From sequence record OK428535.1: a stretch of 64,000 nt of DNA; one strand, 5' to 3'. A program made the translations under genes and the position numbers. Under the pieces are notes generated by a model, which was not told the origin of the DNA, ran no database searches, and was given only the letters and a program-made list of their open reading frames with translations. This DNA comes from Escherichia phage vB_EcoM_Lh1B. Numbering within the stretch: the first letter of the stretch is position 1; each line of letters starts with the position of its first letter. Shown in pieces: positions 8,909 to 59,495 of this stretch.

Positions 8909-9032
8909 AGAGTATCCTTTCAGTGGTAAAAACTTTCTCGTTTAACAGCCAACTTTACTGTCATATTAAGCCCACTATGTTGTTTTTAGAACGATTTAGT
9001 ATGCACCACAAACCTACTATAAGGAAACAACC

Positions 9033-9581
9033 ATGGCAGTCATCTCTGCAAAAGACCAACTCGTCGCGCTGTTTAATGCTGCAAACAGCGGACTGTCTAG
9101 TCCGTTAACTACTGCTGACGTTACATTCGGCGCTGTTGCTGACTATTCACCAGCAGATTCTGGAGACACTCGCAACTCCAAACTCACCATCACTGCCACC
9201 GCGGAATCCGCTAACTTTACGGGCGAGAAAGAGCTGCACTATACCCGCCTCGATTCATTGAACATCATCGGTGCGAAAGCAGTTACCGCTGACCAGGCAG
9301 AATGGGATACCGATGAAGAAGTGCTTGCTTTTGTCAACGCAGATCTAATTGCCGCCGGTAAAACGGAAGATGCGTTTGCATTGTCTGAACTCACCATTTC
9401 ACGCGAGGACGGCGACAGTGGTGAGAAAATCATCACTGTTATGGTGAAAGAAGGCCACATTAAATACCAGCCTGCCAGCCTTGCAGTTTATACTGTAACG
9501 CAGCCAATCGTTAAAACTGACCTGAGCACCACCAACGGTGAACTAGACGGATTCGTTTCACAAAACAACGTTAGTATGTAA
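9033..9581 (+). CDS. hypothetical protein sharing a C-terminal motif with the first CDS
   Basis: 182-aa ORF; C-terminus DLSTTNGELDGFVSQ is paralogous to the TNGELDGFQ end of CDS 2-634. Confidence 0.55.
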   Translation: MAVISAKDQLVALFNAANSGLSSPLTTADVTFGAVADYSPADSGDTRNSKLTITATAESANFTGEKELHYTRLDSLNIIGAKAVTADQAEWDTDEEVLAFVNADLIAAGKTEDAFALSELTISREDGDSGEKIITVMVKEGHIKYQPASLAVYTVTQPIVKTDLSTTNGELDGFVSQNNVSM

Positions 9582-9620: not shown

Positions 9621-9644
9621 CCTACCTCCCTTCGGGGAGGTAGG
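9621..9644. terminator. bidirectional rho-independent terminator
   Basis: CCTACCTCCC-ttcg-GGGAGGTAGG hairpin with TTCG tetraloop and A/T-rich flanks, between convergent genes. Confidence 0.6.
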
Positions 9645-15045: not shown

Positions 15046-15090
15046 AAAAAGTAGAACGAGCGGACTATGTCCATAAACATAGTCCGGCTC
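15046..15090 (-). terminator. stem-loop / partial terminator between fibre gene and peptide genes
   Basis: Inverted repeat CGGACTATG...CATAGTCCG with T-run on the minus strand, directly upstream of the RBS of the first peptide gene. Confidence 0.4.
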
Positions 15091-15099
15091 GTAAACAAG

Positions 15100-21592: not shown

Positions 21593-21628
21593 TTTACCTA
21601 CGGACTACCCGCCCGTAGGCAGTCCGTC

Positions 21629-29552: not shown

Positions 29553-30815
29553 ATGACTACTGCTTATCAAGTGCGGGCCGACAGCGCTTTTGGCTTCTCT
29601 CGAGACACCCGAACTTGGGGAACCATCGATGTCACGCAGCCCTTAAATACCCTTTGTGCTAACTACCACTTTTTCGAAGTAGGACTAGAAGCACTAGGTG
29701 CTGAATACACCTTCTATAGCCAGTATCACCTGGCTGATTTACAAAACCGTACGGACACGTTGCAAGATTGGTTAAACACCAANNCAGGAACCCCGATTCC
29801 CACGCTTGGGAAGGGCCTNCCGAANCTCNAATTNNTTGNGGCANATTACCAGTCTATTAATGCAGATGTGCCCGTAGAAACGCACCTGTGCCCTCCTGGG
29901 TACCACTACACTCAGGACTTCAATCCTGATGATGCACACGACGTTGTTGTAGTCTGCGACGATGAGTGGAAAGAGAAATACCGTACTGGGGTACTGTACA
30001 ACATCAACGGTCAATGGGTACCGCACCAATCTGACCCAGTGGGTGTTCGCTTAACCGGCGCTGGTAACATCGTGCGGAGAGCCAACACACCCNACANCGG
30101 CNGTCTAGTGATGGCGAATATTGGTAAAGTGAAGACTTACCCCATATCCGGTTTAACGATGAACAAACTCGATACTACGCGAGATTACTATTCTTCGTTA
30201 ATGTTGACCTTACCCGATTCCATTACAGGGAAAACCGTTGGGTTCGTCATCGGGGGTATTCTGCATTGGTTGCCACCGCAGGGCTATTTCAGCGACCGTG
30301 CGATTATGCTGAGTCTGCCAAACCTTAGCGTGGCGAAGATTGTATTGGAAACCCGTCGCTATTACGATTGGGACGCCATCGGTGTAGGTGATTTAAGTAC
30401 GCCTACGTCCGTTCAACGTATTCGTAACTCAGAAACGTTAAAAGCGTTGCTGACGCACGAATCCTCGTTTATCTTTACGATAGACAACCCGTATCTCGAA
30501 AAAGAGATTCACGGAATAAGCCACAACGCTATCTGGGGCCGGTTCTATTTAAAAGACCCGACTGACCCAGATGGGAAGAAGACGCTAGGTCCTATCTTTA
30601 ACCGTATTGGTAAATGTGTAGGGTACTGGCCGACCTGGGAAGAAGGGGAGTGGGTCTTTAATACCACATTCTTCGACCGGGAAAACTTTTTNTTGGGGAA
30701 CGCACGTTGGTNTAACCAGAATTTGGNAAANGACNCNCAGGNAATNGNNGGGCCTTTCGGGGNTTGGGGTAAGCCGTTTNTTGAAATGCATCGCTACAAA
30801 GNAAGAAAAAAATAA
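29553..30815 (+). CDS. hypothetical protein
   Basis: 420-aa ORF with GAGGAA RBS, divergent from the fibre operon; n-rich at the 3' end. Confidence 0.55.
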   Translation: MTTAYQVRADSAFGFSRDTRTWGTIDVTQPLNTLCANYHFFEVGLEALGAEYTFYSQYHLADLQNRTDTLQDWLNTXXGTPIPTLGKGXPXLXXXXAXYQSINADVPVETHLCPPGYHYTQDFNPDDAHDVVVVCDDEWKEKYRTGVLYNINGQWVPHQSDPVGVRLTGAGNIVRRANTPXXGXLVMANIGKVKTYPISGLTMNKLDTTRDYYSSLMLTLPDSITGKTVGFVIGGILHWLPPQGYFSDRAIMLSLPNLSVAKIVLETRRYYDWDAIGVGDLSTPTSVQRIRNSETLKALLTHESSFIFTIDNPYLEKEIHGISHNAIWGRFYLKDPTDPDGKKTLGPIFNRIGKCVGYWPTWEEGEWVFNTTFFDRENFXLGNARWXNQNLXXDXQXXXGPFGXWGKPFXEMHRYKXRKK

Positions 30816-30823
30816 AAGGTAAA

Positions 30824-30846
30824 CCCTACTCCCAATGGGAGNAGGG
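30824..30846. terminator. bidirectional rho-independent terminator
   Basis: CCCTACTCCC-aat-GGGAGnAGGG hairpin with A-rich and T-rich flanks. Confidence 0.55.
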
Positions 30847-30877
30847 NACCTATATNTTTTTTTTGCCNGNNGGCCGA

Positions 30878-31087
30878 TTACGCGTTTACNTAATANATGG
30901 CGTTGCCGAACATTTTGTTGTTGCCGCCACAAGCGGTAACTTTAAATGCTACGCCGCCTTCAGCTTCGGCTTTCTTAGCCAGCGCTTCGGTAACTTCGGT
31001 AACGGTGCTCAGTCCAGAAACCTGAACGGTGCCTGCTTCTACCAGACCAGAAACGTCGCTGCCTGCGGTGATTTCACGAATGCTCAT
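30878..31087 (-). CDS. small protein with YdgH/BhsA/McbA (DUF1471)-like domain, no signal peptide
   Basis: 69 aa with GGAGA RBS; GTVQVSGLSTVTEVTEALAKKAEAEGGVAFKVTACGGNNKMFGNA.Y fits the DUF1471 pattern as recalled. Confidence 0.45.
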   Translation of the reverse strand: MSIREITAGSDVSGLVEAGTVQVSGLSTVTEVTEALAKKAEAEGGVAFKVTACGGNNKMFGNAXYXVNA

Positions 31088-31295
31088 TTACTTATCTCCA
31101 TTAACAAATGATAGCAGAAGAACCCTATGTTCAACTACTTGTACTTCGAGGCATATTAACTGCCCCGTCTCGTAAATTAGTTGACAATAAACCGGCTTTT
31201 GTGCGAAAAAAGTGGCTAACCGTGTACAAGCGATTTGGGTTATCGTTNCAGTTAGGNGGTTTATTGTCACAATATACAGCTCACACGTAATTAAA

Positions 31296-32228
31296 TTAGT
31301 GCGGTGTGCTAGTGTCGTTGCCCGGACCATGGCCAGTATGCAAGTGAAGACTAAAGGTAATGCCGCCGATAACCGATTCGGTAACTGTGAATGTACCCTT
31401 ACCTTCACCCTTGCCATTATAGAGGAAATCCTTACCTACTTCCAGGTTGCCGGTAAATAGATTCGTTGGACAATCGGTCTTCCAGTCTTCAGTCGTCCAT
31501 GCCATGTTTTTCGACGCTGTAGAGTTGCGAGTTTCGCACTTCTCGTTAATCGTTTTTGTCTCGAGATTAATAGAACGTTTAGCATAAATGAAAGCGTCCT
31601 CTTTATTGATATTAACCTTCGATCGGCAGGCGTTTTCAAACCCTAAGTCATCCTCTGGGGAGTTAAGGTAGAACTTACGCCCTTCGTCATCTACTAACTG
31701 GAAAAACCCATCGCGTGTGTTCAATTGAAATAGATACGCATTTTTCTCACCGTTAGTCATACTGGTACGTAAAGTAACGTGACCATCCATCGGGGAGATA
31801 TTCAGTACGTAGGCGTTAGAGAGGTCATCGGCCATCTGGTTTACTGGGTCAGCAGACCAGGCGTATACCCCATCTTCCAGTCGCTTAACGTTACTGTTGT
31901 TTAAATCTTCCCAGAAGTACATATCAGTTTCACCGATACGCCAGATTCTTACGTAGTCTTCTTTTTTCACATCCGGAGGGTTAACCCGGTTGCTGTTGGA
32001 CTTCATCCATTTTGCAGTGATGGCATTACCTTGCTTTACAGTAAGGTTGTCAGTACCACTTAAACTGTTGTGTTGCTTCTCTACAGGTGTCTCTGTTGCA
32101 TCGACAGCTGTAGGATTAATAAAGTTAACTTCGATAGGGATGACTTTAACTCGAGTGGCACCACGAGGTTTATCTTCCGCGACGATACCTATCGAGAAGA
32201 TGTGCAACCCTGACTTAGATTTATTCAT
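31296..32228 (-). CDS. hypothetical protein
   Basis: 310-aa ORF with GAGGAGGG RBS. Confidence 0.55.
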   Translation of the reverse strand: MNKSKSGLHIFSIGIVAEDKPRGATRVKVIPIEVNFINPTAVDATETPVEKQHNSLSGTDNLTVKQGNAITAKWMKSNSNRVNPPDVKKEDYVRIWRIGETDMYFWEDLNNSNVKRLEDGVYAWSADPVNQMADDLSNAYVLNISPMDGHVTLRTSMTNGEKNAYLFQLNTRDGFFQLVDDEGRKFYLNSPEDDLGFENACRSKVNINKEDAFIYAKRSINLETKTINEKCETRNSTASKNMAWTTEDWKTDCPTNLFTGNLEVGKDFLYNGKGEGKGTFTVTESVIGGITFSLHLHTGHGPGNDTSTPH

Positions 32229-39387: not shown

Positions 39388-39420
39388 TGGAACCCTTCGG
39401 GGTTCCATTTNTTCTTTTTT
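39388..39420 (+). terminator. rho-independent terminator
   Basis: TGGAACCC-ttcg-GGGTTCCA hairpin followed by a T-run. Confidence 0.55.
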
Positions 39421-39473
39421 ACGCATGACCTTTTGGATATGAACNNCTAATNCTTTCTCATTANAAGGCAAAC

Positions 39474-41984
39474 ATGCACAAGGTCGAACGTATCATTTTN
39501 AAAGNNTTTACCGGCATGGGGTTACATGAAANNNAAANNTTTGATTTCACCCTTAANTCAACCGTTACCANCATCCTCGGTGGCAACGGCTGCGGTAAAA
39601 CAAGCCTCCTGTCTGTTTTTCTCCCCTTAGCTCCAGCAAAATCAGAATTCCGTGAAGGTGGTTCCTACACTAACTACGCGTTAGTTGGGGACGACCGTCT
39701 TAAGTTTGAAGTCCTGCGTCGTGGCTCTTCTCTGTCTTGTAGTATTTTCAATATCACTAAAGGTGTCTCCATCGTAGACTCGGTAAACGCCAAAGTTTAC
39801 AACTCCATGGTGGAGCAATTAACCGGAATCACCAAAGAAATCAAAGAGTTAATTAATGGTGAGACCTTATTAACTGACGCCACTACCGAAGTTCGTCGTA
39901 AATGGTTTACGTTAATGTCAGAATCTGATCTGACGTACGTTGTTGGTTGCTATCGACGTTTGCGTAAACTCGCTTCCAGTTTAAGTGGGGCCATTGAGCA
40001 CACCGGCCGTAAAATCGGTGAGGCAAAAATGCGCGTGGTGGACGATGAAGAAGATCGTGCACGTTTAGAAGTTCGTTTGAAAGAACTCGATGCTGAGCTT
40101 CAGGAATTAAACCGCACAATTGAAGCGAGACCCGGTTTAGATAACGCCGTTTCGGTTGATAGTATCCGGAAACGCATTGCTTCGTTGCAACCGGCTGTAA
40201 AACTCATTATGGAACGTTATGGCGTTCTGCCTTCTGACGAACTGATTAACGAGTTTCAAAGTCGTGTGGTTGCCTGGCGTGAGCAAGCTGCCTCTGCTGA
40301 AACTGAATGCAACATGTACAATAAAGAGTTGTCACAGCTACTGGATGAGGAGTCGCGTCAAGCGTATCTGATGCGCAACCATACCGGTCTAAAACAAACA
40401 ATCGACAGCTTAAAACAGGAACTGGCAACGTTCCAACAGAACTGGATGTTCCCGGCTCTGTTTGAAGGTACCCGCATTGATGTGGATAGCATTCAGAACG
40501 CGTTAAACGATGCCTGTAACTGGAATTTACCGTTGTCCATGCATCTGGACCAGTTAAAGACAACAGATCGCCTGGGAGCGTTAGAGAAGCGTTTACAGGG
40601 TATGGATTTAACCTCTGCGGGTCTATCTGAAAAGCTGCAACGTTGTGAGAATGTGCTACACGGTTTATACCACGACCGTCAACACTTCTTAGAAACTGCA
40701 GAAGTTGATTGTCCACAGTGTAACCACCGTTTCCGTCCTGGGATTCGTAAGTCGTTACCTGAAATTGAAAAGGCCATCAACGATAATGAAGGTTGGAAGA
40801 AGCAGCTGAAAGACGAAATGGATAGTCTTTTGCGTGACCGCAAAGAGATTGAAGAGGACGTCCGTAGCTTACGTACGATTCGCGAAATCGTCATGTCGTA
40901 TTCCAACCATCCTGTTGTCGGTTTGTTTTTCCGTAAACTGCAGGAGCTGGATATCTTCACCACGGCGCGGGATCGTTACGGTGCCATTGCACGTGCCTTT
41001 ACTGAAGAGCTAGATTCGGCCATGATGTATCTGCGTCAATCGGCGAAGCTTGCAACAGCGGAACGGGAATGGCAAGAGGCTGTTGCCGCAGTAGGTAACG
41101 TTGATGGTGCGCTGAGCCAGAAAATTGAACATATCCGTTCACAACTGGACGGGGCTAACCGTCGACTGATAGAATACCGCAGACAAGCCAATGAGCTGGA
41201 ACGCGAAACCACCCAACTGCAACAAACCAAAGAAGCAATCGAACGTTTCCAAAAAGGCTACGAACATCTGGTATCGGAAATGAACATCTCCGTTAACAAC
41301 GTCGTGGTTCGTGAGTTGTTAAACCGACGCGAAGCGAAGCTCGATGCGTATACTTCAGCTCGTGAACGGTTTCGTCAAATGGAAGGGGCTATTGCACGTT
41401 TAGCGGAATTGGAAAAAGAGCAAGCTGAGTTGCTCAAAGAACACCATCNNGNCNGATTGATTATCAATGCCGTCTCACCCGAAAAAGGATTATTGCGTCG
41501 TTACTTTTATGCTGCGATTACCCGCATCATGGATTTAATGAATCGGTATATCGAAATGGTGTGGGCATATCCGATGCAGGTTATTCCATGCGATCTAACC
41601 GACGGGGATTTGGATTATACTTTCCCGGTGCGATTAAAAGACCATGAAGAACTGGTGCCGGATGTGAAGAAAGGTTCGAAGGCACAGCGTATTATCTTTA
41701 ACATGATGTTTCGTTTAACGGCGTATAAAGCGCTTGGTTTACAAAACTATCCTTTGTTNTTNGATNAANCCNCNNAAGGCATGGATGAANAACANAAAAA
41801 NCGCCTGGTCAACTTCTTTAAATCGTTGGNGTTGTTGGGGGAGTTTTCTNAANTGCTGGTCGTTTCGCATGAAGCGGAAGTTCATTCTAAACTTAACGAA
41901 GCCACCTACTGTGTCGTGGAGCCAGAAGGTGTAACGCTTCCACCGGTTTATAACGAAGGGGTAATAATCAAATATGCATCATAA
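39474..41984 (+). CDS. SbcC/Rad50-like recombination ATPase
   Basis: N-terminal Walker A ILGGNGCGKTSLL; very long central coiled coil with central CPQC zinc-hook-like motif; C-terminal Walker B/D-loop (..GMDE..) and LVVSHEAEV H-loop. Confidence 0.75.
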   Translation: MHKVERIIXKXFTGMGLHEXXXFDFTLXSTVTXILGGNGCGKTSLLSVFLPLAPAKSEFREGGSYTNYALVGDDRLKFEVLRRGSSLSCSIFNITKGVSIVDSVNAKVYNSMVEQLTGITKEIKELINGETLLTDATTEVRRKWFTLMSESDLTYVVGCYRRLRKLASSLSGAIEHTGRKIGEAKMRVVDDEEDRARLEVRLKELDAELQELNRTIEARPGLDNAVSVDSIRKRIASLQPAVKLIMERYGVLPSDELINEFQSRVVAWREQAASAETECNMYNKELSQLLDEESRQAYLMRNHTGLKQTIDSLKQELATFQQNWMFPALFEGTRIDVDSIQNALNDACNWNLPLSMHLDQLKTTDRLGALEKRLQGMDLTSAGLSEKLQRCENVLHGLYHDRQHFLETAEVDCPQCNHRFRPGIRKSLPEIEKAINDNEGWKKQLKDEMDSLLRDRKEIEEDVRSLRTIREIVMSYSNHPVVGLFFRKLQELDIFTTARDRYGAIARAFTEELDSAMMYLRQSAKLATAEREWQEAVAAVGNVDGALSQKIEHIRSQLDGANRRLIEYRRQANELERETTQLQQTKEAIERFQKGYEHLVSEMNISVNNVVVRELLNRREAKLDAYTSARERFRQMEGAIARLAELEKEQAELLKEHHXXXLIINAVSPEKGLLRRYFYAAITRIMDLMNRYIEMVWAYPMQVIPCDLTDGDLDYTFPVRLKDHEELVPDVKKGSKAQRIIFNMMFRLTAYKALGLQNYPLXXDXXXXGMDEXXKXRLVNFFKSLXLLGEFSXXLVVSHEAEVHSKLNEATYCVVEPEGVTLPPVYNEGVIIKYAS

Positions 41985-43634: not shown

Positions 43635-43880
43635 ATGAGTGGGGTATTTTTTACGCGAGGAGTGCTATTTATGTTTCACCGTCCCGGGTTTTCAGCTTTA
43701 AACACCGATGTCTGTTGGGCTGAGTACGAGCGGGTGAAGGAGTTCTTACCCGTAAATCCTAAACACATCAACGTGGGTACTATCGGGCGTGTTGCGTTCG
43801 ATGACACTCCGCTGAGTACGTGTATTAAAGCTGCGCTTGGTACGCTGCCGGCGTCTATAGTGTTTGAGGAATTAAAATGA
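43635..43880 (+). CDS. hypothetical small protein
   Basis: 81-aa ORF ending with an ATGA overlap into the next gene. Confidence 0.4.
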   Translation: MSGVFFTRGVLFMFHRPGFSALNTDVCWAEYERVKEFLPVNPKHINVGTIGRVAFDDTPLSTCIKAALGTLPASIVFEELK

Positions 43881-48460: not shown

Positions 48461-48479
48461 TGCGATAAAAAATAAAAGC

Positions 48480-48505
48480 CTACCTACTCCCAAGGGAGTA
48501 GGTAG
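48480..48505. terminator. bidirectional rho-independent terminator
   Basis: CTACCTACTCCC / GGGAGTAGGTAG stem with A-rich and T-rich flanks between convergent genes. Confidence 0.6.
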
Positions 48506-59097: not shown

Positions 59098-59195
59098 TCT
59101 ATCAACCTCGAATATATAAGGGATTGGGCTACATAGTAAGTCTTTTACGTATCACCCAAACCTTATGTACGAGAACTGCAAAAAGGTAACACCTG

Positions 59196-59495
59196 ATGAA
59201 AATCAAATTACTGACTCGTGCTTTAACCTCTCGTATCGAACCTGAGATTTACACCACCCCGACGAAGAAGAATACCGATGGTAGTCCGATCGTGGTTGGT
59301 AAAATCCTGAACGTGACCACACGTGCTGATGGTCAACGCGTTCTGGAAATCGAAATCGACGAACGTAACCGTAACCGCTTCAAAAGCATTTCTAACATCA
59401 ATCCTAAGGATGACAACCAAGTCACCGAGTGGGCAGAAGTGCATTTCGAAGTTTGGCATAAACGTCGTCTGTTACTCCCACTGAAAAAACGCTAA
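59196..59495 (+). CDS. hypothetical protein
   Basis: 99-aa ORF. Confidence 0.5.
   Translation: MKIKLLTRALTSRIEPEIYTTPTKKNTDGSPIVVGKILNVTTRADGQRVLEIEIDERNRNRFKSISNINPKDDNQVTEWAEVHFEVWHKRRLLLPLKKR

Follow-up and report, generated by a model that had tools for sequence, protein, structure and literature searches.

What does a lytic jumbo phage gain from a single domain of a bacterial periplasmic family that it keeps in the middle of its baseplate gene cluster, and how did the domain come to be there? The question is raised by a small gene in a stretch of 64,000 nucleotides of Escherichia phage vB_EcoM_Lh1B (sequence record OK428535.1; the whole stretch is called the window below). The gene encodes a DUF1471 protein of 69 residues, the counterpart of gp172 of phage SPN3US, and we use that name for the protein. 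An earlier note, made from the letters of this DNA alone, had described the gene as an isolated, host-derived moron. The reading that we favour, with a probability of roughly 0.55, is that gp172 is a long-domesticated, signal-less DUF1471 protein, an abundant, soluble and unexported accessory protein made from an autonomous cassette.

Domain, fold and loss of the signal peptide

The assignment to DUF1471, made in the earlier note by resemblance, was confirmed by a profile search. The protein matches Pfam PF07338 (YdgH_BhsA-like) over profile positions 2-51 of 55, scoring 41 bits (gathering cutoff 27; E 2e-10), and phrog_8068 with an E value of 3e-31. The fold has been described as mixed alpha+beta, with a short N-terminal strand, a long helix and a three-stranded antiparallel sheet (PMC4092069). 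The AlphaFold2 model of the phage protein (predicted local distance difference test score, pLDDT, 89.7) agrees with this description, with strands at residues 4-5, 15-26, 47-54 and 59-68 and a helix at residues 29-42, i.e., in the order short strand, strand, helix, strand, strand. The top matches of the model in the PDB, found with Foldseek, are solved DUF1471 domains only (4EVU, 2MA8, 2M2J, 2JNA and 2NOC/2MA4, including YdgH, SrfN and YahO; template modelling score, TM, 0.66-0.76), followed by RcsF.

Bacterial DUF1471 proteins have approximately 90 residues, mostly carry signal sequences, are exclusive to Enterobacteriaceae and fall into about 12 subfamilies (PMC4092069). The phage protein corresponds to the mature periplasmic domain alone, as follows from three observations taken together. 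The NCBIfam profiles of McbA, BhsA, YbiJ and YhcN align to it only from position ~29-34 of ~86, that is over their mature part; an in-frame TAA (31088-31090) stands directly 5' of the ATG; and the maximum N-terminal hydropathy of the phage proteins is 0.3-1.4 vs. ~1.6-3.1 in full-length bacterial relatives. The absence of an export signal noticed earlier is thereby upheld. A longer N-terminus with a hidden signal peptide was considered and ruled out, both by the TAA and by the comparison of nine orthologs, in which the GGAG/GAGG site and the start codon are kept and the frames upstream of them are not. For YdgH, the sole family member tested, periplasmic location is necessary for function (PMC11705850). 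Another solved member, SrfN, binds sulfated polysaccharides.

Paralogs of the family are more than 50% identical inside a subfamily and 20-40% identical between subfamilies. The phage protein fits none of the approximately 12 bacterial subfamilies: its best scores against the NCBIfam equivalog models are far under the cutoffs (McbA 38.9 bits, cutoff 110; BhsA 36.4 bits, cutoff 90), its identity to BhsA is 31-43%, and its own group stands on top of the profile search described below. What it has in common with the bacterial proteins, apart from the Pfam match and the fold, are the conserved GG(N/D)N(K/Q)...G(N/S/T)A motif and the size of a mature single domain, and all hosts of the carrier phages are Enterobacterales. 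It differs from them in having no signal peptide, in not being periplasmic at synthesis and in its identity of at most 43% to the bacterial subfamilies, and its gene differs in being encoded by a lytic jumbo phage, in its predicted phage-type promoter and in an extreme high-expression codon usage.

The likeness to RcsF, the outer-membrane lipoprotein sensor of the Rcs envelope-stress pathway, is high in terms of structure (Foldseek TM 0.79 to 2Y1B), and the same similarity, in the same ranking, was seen for the bacterial DUF1471 family (Eletsky et al., 2014). Sequence identity is, however, only ~12%, gp172 has no lipobox or signal, and its single cysteine at most, unconserved between alleles, means that the redox-active disulfides of RcsF are absent. 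The likeness is thus one of fold only. Two other functional suggestions were also dropped. Selenium binding or another cysteine-based function (TIGR03884 at E 0.031; fold match to 2JZ7) was set aside, as the single cysteine is not conserved among alleles, and a DNA-binding or histone-like role is unlikely, all alleles being acidic.

Identity of the gene and its reading frame

The earlier call of a 69-residue minus-strand gene at 30878-31087 is correct in position, length and ATG start. Its product is identical to SPN3US gp172 (SPN3US_0172 / YP_009153466.1) in 67 of 69 residues, the remaining two being X derived from N, and the two genes have the same neighbors, spacer and terminator. The window belongs to an SPN3US-like jumbo phage of the genus Seoulvirus, and 3.3 kb around the gene are 96-98% identical to Proteus phage 7, the SPFM phages and SPN3US. 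Judged by sequence, the gene is that of gp172 as carried by a sister isolate within the SPFM/SPN3US group. The protein is of ~7 kDa and acidic (pI 4.6-5.3).

Ambiguous bases are numerous in the window (315 N, e.g., in 30690-30870), and the earlier note had allowed that they might alter the frame. The open reading frame (ORF) aligns without gaps to N-free genomes, in which the two N-containing codons read ATC (Ile) and TAC (Tyr), and the frame stands. In the records of SPFM5, 7, 9, 10, 12 and 15 the gene is mis-annotated as 61-residue wrong-frame ORFs that match only the first 20-23 residues, evidently because of the same kind of sequence ambiguity. Two mechanically called ORFs overlap the spacer and the antisense strand of the gene, one of 109 residues (31088-31417, minus strand) and one of 82 residues (30863-31111, plus strand); both were rejected as spurious, being unannotated in related records and having frames that are not conserved across related spacers.

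Distribution and age

A recently acquired host gene, i.e., a moron that would confer a BhsA/McbA-like stress or biofilm phenotype on the host when infected or lysogenised, is suggested by the otherwise exclusive occurrence of the family in Enterobacteriaceae, by the name 'multiple stress resistance protein BhsA' in some GenBank records of the carrier phages and by the gene's own promoter-like motif and terminator. The distribution of the gene argues strongly against it. In a blastn search of 5,426 E. coli genomes, with Salmonella and Erwinia left out at the DNA level, no match was obtained, and recent acquisition from the host, for which such a search had been proposed, found no support. When E. 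coli BhsA was used as the query against 50,697 phage records, essentially this clade only was retrieved. A word-indexed search of 5.8 billion proteins gave phage-type relatives only (identity of at least 70%). Among 1.84 billion representatives, an exhaustive profile search gave 73 matches, with four signal-less phage-type clusters on top and, below them, typical bacterial proteins of 80-88 residues in which the match begins near residue 28-38. Searching IMG/VR for more relatives returned SPN3US and Caitlin themselves only, and annotation of defense and anti-defense genes with PADLOC gave no hits.

With divergent alleles as tblastn queries, exactly one copy was found in at least 61 records of jumbo phages of Salmonella, Erwinia, Cronobacter, Escherichia and Proteus. 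Synteny is invariant in Seoulvirus, Machinavirus, Erskinevirus, Wellingtonvirus and Derbicusvirus, where the order is spike gene, a spacer of 207-403 bp, DUF1471 gene, terminator and convergent gp171 ortholog. Morons are expected to be absent from some close relatives; here every related record examined has one copy in the same position. The same locus across five genera and the lack of a DNA match in the E. coli genomes together indicate an old, fixed gene and not a recent moron. In a neighbor-joining tree the phage alleles form one split, and the nearest sequence to each is another phage allele and not a bacterial representative, but the tree has 56 columns and the bootstrap value of the split is weak (15/100).

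Host origin of the domain as such is likely, since the family is otherwise exclusive to Enterobacteriaceae and the carrier phages infect enterobacterial hosts. The description as a host-derived moron can therefore be kept in part. The enterobacterial origin of the domain and the architecture, with its own promoter-like motif and terminator, are moron-like, and gp172 has in common with morons such as lambda bor and lom that it is a small accessory ORF of host origin that lies among tail genes and is exchanged as a unit. It is, however, neither recent nor variably present, its predicted promoter is of a phage type and not driven by sigma-70, and it has no export signal, which typical envelope-acting morons keep. 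As the SPN3US-like carriers are lytic (PMC6614189), the argument from lysogenic conversion that is made for morons cannot be extended to these jumbo phages. With the equivalog scores far under cutoff, and with no signal peptide in a family whose tested member needs its periplasmic location, a recent moron is hardly credible.

In Wellingtonvirus a second DUF1471 gene follows the first directly in tandem (gp190 of Erwinia phage Kwan, 3787-4347 of our comparison locus L007; in pEa_SNUABM_11, 1802-2368 of locus L018). Its product has a signal-less N-terminal DUF1471 domain (Pfam 29.7 bits, cutoff 27) and a tail of ~120 residues that is acidic, of low complexity and rich in Ala, Pro and Thr. The spacer of this genus holds an additional ORF of 52 residues. 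The tandem gene and the additional ORF suggest that the locus is a site of family expansion.

Codon usage and abundance in the cell

On the Sharp-Li E. coli scale the gene has a codon adaptation index (CAI) of 0.675, the highest among the 64 genes of the window (median 0.315; z +6.1), and none of 5,000 random segments of 67 codons reached this value. It uses only ACC, GAA, CTG, AAC and GTT/GTA codons. In nine orthologs the CAI is 0.57-0.68 vs. 0.28-0.39 for flanking genes, and a reference-free test, in which the same protein was encoded with codons drawn from the phage's own usage, gave p = 0.02. Synonymous divergence (dS) of the gene is lower than in the flanks. Among diverged alleles it amounts to 0.56-0.97 and the codon bias is still maintained, which argues for selection on expression and not for foreignness of the gene. 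The comment of Reilly et al. (2020) on gp172 in SPN3US reads 'Unusually high abundance in cell' (PMC7411985 Table S2).

Detection in virion preparations

The protein is real and translated, as 4 unique peptides covering 81% of it were detected in SPN3US; Ali et al. (2017) reported it as the smallest virion protein, of 7 kDa and low abundance, and missing from 47(am1) particles (PMC5694885). It has been proposed above that gp172 is an accessory protein; it could instead be a low-copy component or decoration of the tail or baseplate, assembled in the cytoplasm and so in no need of a signal peptide, carried on the tail tip to the envelope of the next host and, being weakly bound, lost in long CsCl buoyant-density runs. 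In the CsCl-step wild-type virions the identification probability was 100%, and the spectral count per kDa (0.86) was close to those of gp171 (0.74) and the portal (0.93). Relative to the major capsid protein, two independent one-step preparations gave similar numbers of peptide-spectrum matches (PSMs; 6/1592 and 3/652), the place of the gene in the baseplate and fiber module is invariant in the five genera, and the SPN3US group labelled the protein 'Tail' because it is absent from tailless am27 heads (PMC7411985 Table S2).

The counts in the same table point in the other direction. After differential centrifugation only, the crudest sample, 13 PSMs were found, and 6 and 3 after one CsCl step; there were none in doubly purified tailed particles and 2 in DNA-full tail-less heads (Reilly et al., 2020; PMC7411985). 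Three doubly purified tail-containing samples with plentiful gp171 and gp173 also had none (PMC7411985). The deeper triplicate tables of wild-type virions from 2023 list gp171, gp173 and even 'non-virion' proteins with 2-3 PSMs, and have no entry for gp172. The PSM count thus tracks the crudeness of the preparation, the published detection in virions is not reproducible, and in the published tables, which are what we used, there is no reproducible detection in highly purified virions. Stable virion membership is unlikely. In addition, the CAI of 0.675 vs. 0.414 for an abundant head protein (9033..9581) exceeds by far what a few copies per virion would call for. For these reasons, and for the allele differences given below, we regard the tail component as an unlikely explanation.

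Tail assembly in T4 involves the chaperone gp57A. A role of this kind, for a protein unrelated to gp57A in sequence, can be imagined for gp172 as a non-structural assembly chaperone of the adjacent baseplate, spike or giant fiber proteins, transiently bound and left in traces in finished virions. The gene lies between the spike gene and gp171 and the fiber paralogs gp168-170, has a late-type promoter motif, and its product is apparently abundant in the cell and substoichiometric and variable in particle preparations. No DUF1471 protein is known as a chaperone, however, and gp172 is not among the essential genes from the SPN3US amber screen, which was non-saturating (PMC5105663). Together with the lack of correspondence to the presumed clients described in the following section, this makes a chaperone distinctly improbable.

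Selection and exchange of alleles

Within allele groups the ratio of nonsynonymous to synonymous divergence (dN/dS) is 0.07-0.42, and by this measure the gene is under purifying selection. Between groups, it does not follow its neighbors. The DUF1471 proteins of SPN3US and SPAsTU are 43% identical, while the spike proteins are 75% and the gp171 orthologs 85% identical; for Asesino and SPAsTU the relation is reversed, with 90% for the DUF1471 protein and 70% and 79% for the flanks. Sliding-window comparisons place the breakpoints in the 5' untranslated region (5'UTR) just 5' of the ATG, and at the stop codon and terminator. Between pEa29 and SPAsTU identity is 80-88% in both flanks and 32-60% inside the ORF; inside the ORF of SPAsTU and Asesino it is 82-95%. 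An ORF whose identity is out of step with its flanks, with breakpoints at its edges, has been swapped between phages as a gene-sized cassette. Alleles this different between well-conserved flanks are hard to square with the tight structural interface of a tail component, and are equally out of step with the genes that would be the clients of a chaperone.

Neighbors and expression signals

The coordinates of the gene, its neighbors and the elements around it are collected in Table 1. The description of the gene as isolated on the minus strand was not sustained, as it is co-oriented with the upstream baseplate gene. SPN3US gp171, the product of the convergent neighbor, is an essential tail/baseplate protein and a homolog of phiKZ ORF130 (PMC5105663).

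Table 1. Features at the DUF1471 locus of the window (positions in the 64,000-nucleotide stretch).
Feature	Position	Strand	Remarks
gp171 ortholog, convergent downstream neighbor	29553..30815	plus	phrog_3337
Bidirectional intrinsic terminator	30803..30866	both	A-run, hairpin CCCTACTCCC-AAT-GGGAGNAGGG (30824-30846), T-run; common to gene and convergent gp171 ortholog
DUF1471 coding sequence	30878..31087	minus	69 residues, ATG start; signal-less single PF07338 domain; SPN3US gp172 ortholog
Predicted 5'UTR	31088..31151	minus	64 nt, small hairpin GAAC-AUAGG-GUUC; upstream recombination breakpoint here
Spacer between baseplate and DUF1471 genes	31088..31295	minus	208 bp, 38.3% GC; promoter-like motif (P2), conserved core, perfect inverted repeat, degenerate P1-like motif
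Shine-Dalgarno sequence GGAG	31096..31099	minus	8 nt upstream of ATG
Phage-type promoter-like motif (inferred)	31152..31176	minus	TTTACGAGACGGGGCAGTTAATATG (TTTAC-N16-TATG); predicted transcription start at G of TATG (31152)
Perfect 12-nt inverted repeat around the core	31182..31269	minus	arms 31182-31193 and 31258-31269; closes a long hairpin if transcribed
Conserved non-coding core	31202..31216	minus	GCCACTTTTTTCGCA; unique in window
Baseplate assembly/puncture (spike) protein, upstream neighbor	31296..32228	minus	SPN3US gp173 ortholog; phrog_3216, E 5e-123

The ribosome-binding site and the flanking terminator of the earlier description are both present and conserved. The Shine-Dalgarno sequence is the one kept in the nine orthologs, and the terminator hairpin, with its A-run upstream and T-run downstream, is kept in 11 of 11 loci with some compensatory changes. 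In clean orthologs it folds with -31 to -37 kcal/mol (z -5.1 and -5.6); in the window a simple terminator scanner missed it because of the Ns in the stem. Hairpins of the type CCTAC...GTAGG occur at gene ends in the window 4 times vs. 0.42 expected, which looks like a shared terminator type. Such hairpins are at 9621-9644, 21597-21619 and 48479-48502, and 48483-48502 is nearly identical to the DUF1471 terminator. The stem of the small hairpin in the predicted 5'UTR varies by allele (AGAC/GUCU in folded orthologs, GGCA/UGCC read by eye), and the hairpin alone is not energetically significant (z -0.4 to -0.8).

No sigma-70-type promoter was found when one was looked for upstream of the gene. There is, however, a TTTAC-N12-18-TATG match 65 nt upstream of it, and in 16 of 18 loci the motif, with a spacing of 15-16 nt and unconserved spacer sequence, precedes the DUF1471 ATG by 41-65 nt. 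The window holds 9 matches to TTTAC-N12-18-TATG, vs. 4.2 expected; six of them are fully intergenic, oriented and 29-204 nt upstream of gene starts, in a window that is only 9% non-coding. In phiKZ the late promoters have T(-3)ATG(+1), and the middle promoters an AT-rich element near -24 (PMC7598289). By analogy, TTTAC-N15-16-TATG may be a promoter of a phage RNA polymerase, and the more general TTTAC-N-TATG is a candidate promoter consensus for SPN3US-like phages. No transcriptome or transcription map of these phages was found in the literature. The further intergenic TTTAC(G)-N12-18-TATG copies are at 8954-8979, 39418-39441, 43650-43673 and 59144-59167 on the plus strand and at 15072-15095 on the minus strand. 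The genes behind them include an SbcC-like gene at 39474, phrog_10750 (59196..59495) and a head-protein paralog (9033..9581), the last two being among the highest-CAI genes of the window. With a promoter-like motif in most loci and a terminator, the gene has the predicted makeup of an autonomous transcription unit.

The upstream spacer

The earlier note had mentioned a non-coding AT-rich stretch of 200 bp next to the gene. The stretch exists, as a spacer of 208 bp, but its AT-richness is only moderate (38.3% GC vs. 48.1% for the window and 45.2% for all non-coding DNA), and it is not featureless. The core GCCACTTTTTTCGCA is kept in 13 of 15 spacers, unaltered or nearly so (one or two changes), and these spacers represent four of the five genera; as it occurs once in the window, a repeated genomic signal was ruled out. 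The hairpin closed by the inverted repeat around it has -24.2 kcal/mol (z -4.3) in SPN3US.

The part at 31177-31295 (minus strand) carries an ordered set of elements that is conserved in four of the five genera (comparison loci L002 3731-3935, L003 3745-3910, L007 3274-3426, L008 3268-3414 and L014-L017 1229-1434). A second TTTAC-N-TATG copy, exact in Machinavirus, comes right after the spike stop codon; it is followed by a variable hairpin (GTCGA/TCGAC, GCTAC/GTAGC or CCTC/GAGG), the core CGCTTG...GCCACTTTTTTCGCA and, just before the DUF1471 promoter in most genera, a strong hairpin with a T-run.

Individual spacers fold with z -3 to -5.3. RNAalifold, applied to the spacers, returned no convincing consensus structure: apart from the terminator it found just a 3-bp stem, at a consensus energy of -2 kcal/mol. 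A search for known RNA families in the spacer and terminator gave a sub-threshold miRNA match only. The spacer may be the gene of a small RNA, may serve the spike mRNA as a structured 3'UTR or may be a DNA site.

A proposed domesticated accessory protein

The observations can be brought together in the following scenario. An ancestor of the enterobacterial SPN3US-like jumbo phages would have captured a bacterial DUF1471 domain of the YhcN/BhsA/McbA type long ago. The copy would then have lost its Sec signal, been reduced to the mature domain and been fixed inside the baseplate gene cluster as a self-contained cassette of phage-type promoter, strong ribosome-binding site, ORF and bidirectional terminator. 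From its TATG-type, late-like promoter gp172 would be made in quantity in the cytoplasm and stay there soluble and unexported. It would not be a stoichiometric part of the virion, and its few detections in virion preparations would reflect carry-over or loose binding. The protein may act by mass action, i.e., by stoichiometric binding and not by catalysis. Since the conserved loops of the family are retained, its ligand is most likely an envelope-associated molecule of the kind that host DUF1471 proteins meet in the periplasm. Such a ligand might become accessible to the protein only through a breach of the envelope, with lysis or later, on debris, neighboring cells or virions.

Several points weigh against the accessory protein proposed here. 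The gene sits among tail and baseplate genes, the 'Tail' label comes from the group that works on SPN3US, and the spectral count per kDa in the 2017 wild-type sample is like that of low-copy structural proteins. Ali et al. cautioned that a 7-kDa protein may be lost from gels (PMC5694885), so its non-detection counts for little. The high abundance is drawn from one supplementary comment and from codon statistics, in which the CAI and the reference-free control agree, and the late timing from the analogy with phiKZ promoters only. The extracytoplasmic ligand is pure inference, and the bacterial family itself is without an established molecular function.

A bolder proposal, which we hold to be quite unlikely, makes the mass-produced, signal-less protein an effector that is set free by lysis, or acts once the envelope is breached, and binds a ligand of the outer membrane or an exopolysaccharide on debris, neighboring cells or virions. 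Its roles might include receptor masking or a change of aggregation or of the biofilm matrix by which the progeny would be protected or spread, and the alleles would be swapped as a cassette between co-infecting phages under host-interaction pressure. Independently of this, the conserved spacer may encode a small structured RNA that has a promoter and a terminator of its own.

Significance

The gene itself, the RefSeq label 'DUF1471 domain-containing protein' for SPN3US gp172, the BhsA name and the entry in proteomics tables were known before. In the literature searched we found no description of a clade-wide, signal-less, phage-specific DUF1471 subfamily, of its extreme codon adaptation, of the promoter and terminator cassette, of gene-sized allele exchange or of the tandem second copy in Wellingtonvirus. 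In SPN3US-like infections gp172 probably ranks among the small proteins with the highest expression, and its listing as a tail protein is called into question. TTTAC-N15-16-TATG and CCTAC...GTAGG are testable regulatory signals for a group of phages that has no published transcription map. For the family, DUF1471 is a long-standing puzzle, with 5-10 paralogs per enterobacterium that are tied to stress, biofilm and virulence and have no known molecular function. A clade of lytic jumbo phages that keeps the domain, has removed its signal, tunes its expression and trades its alleles offers a second and simpler context in which the ligand of the domain may be found.

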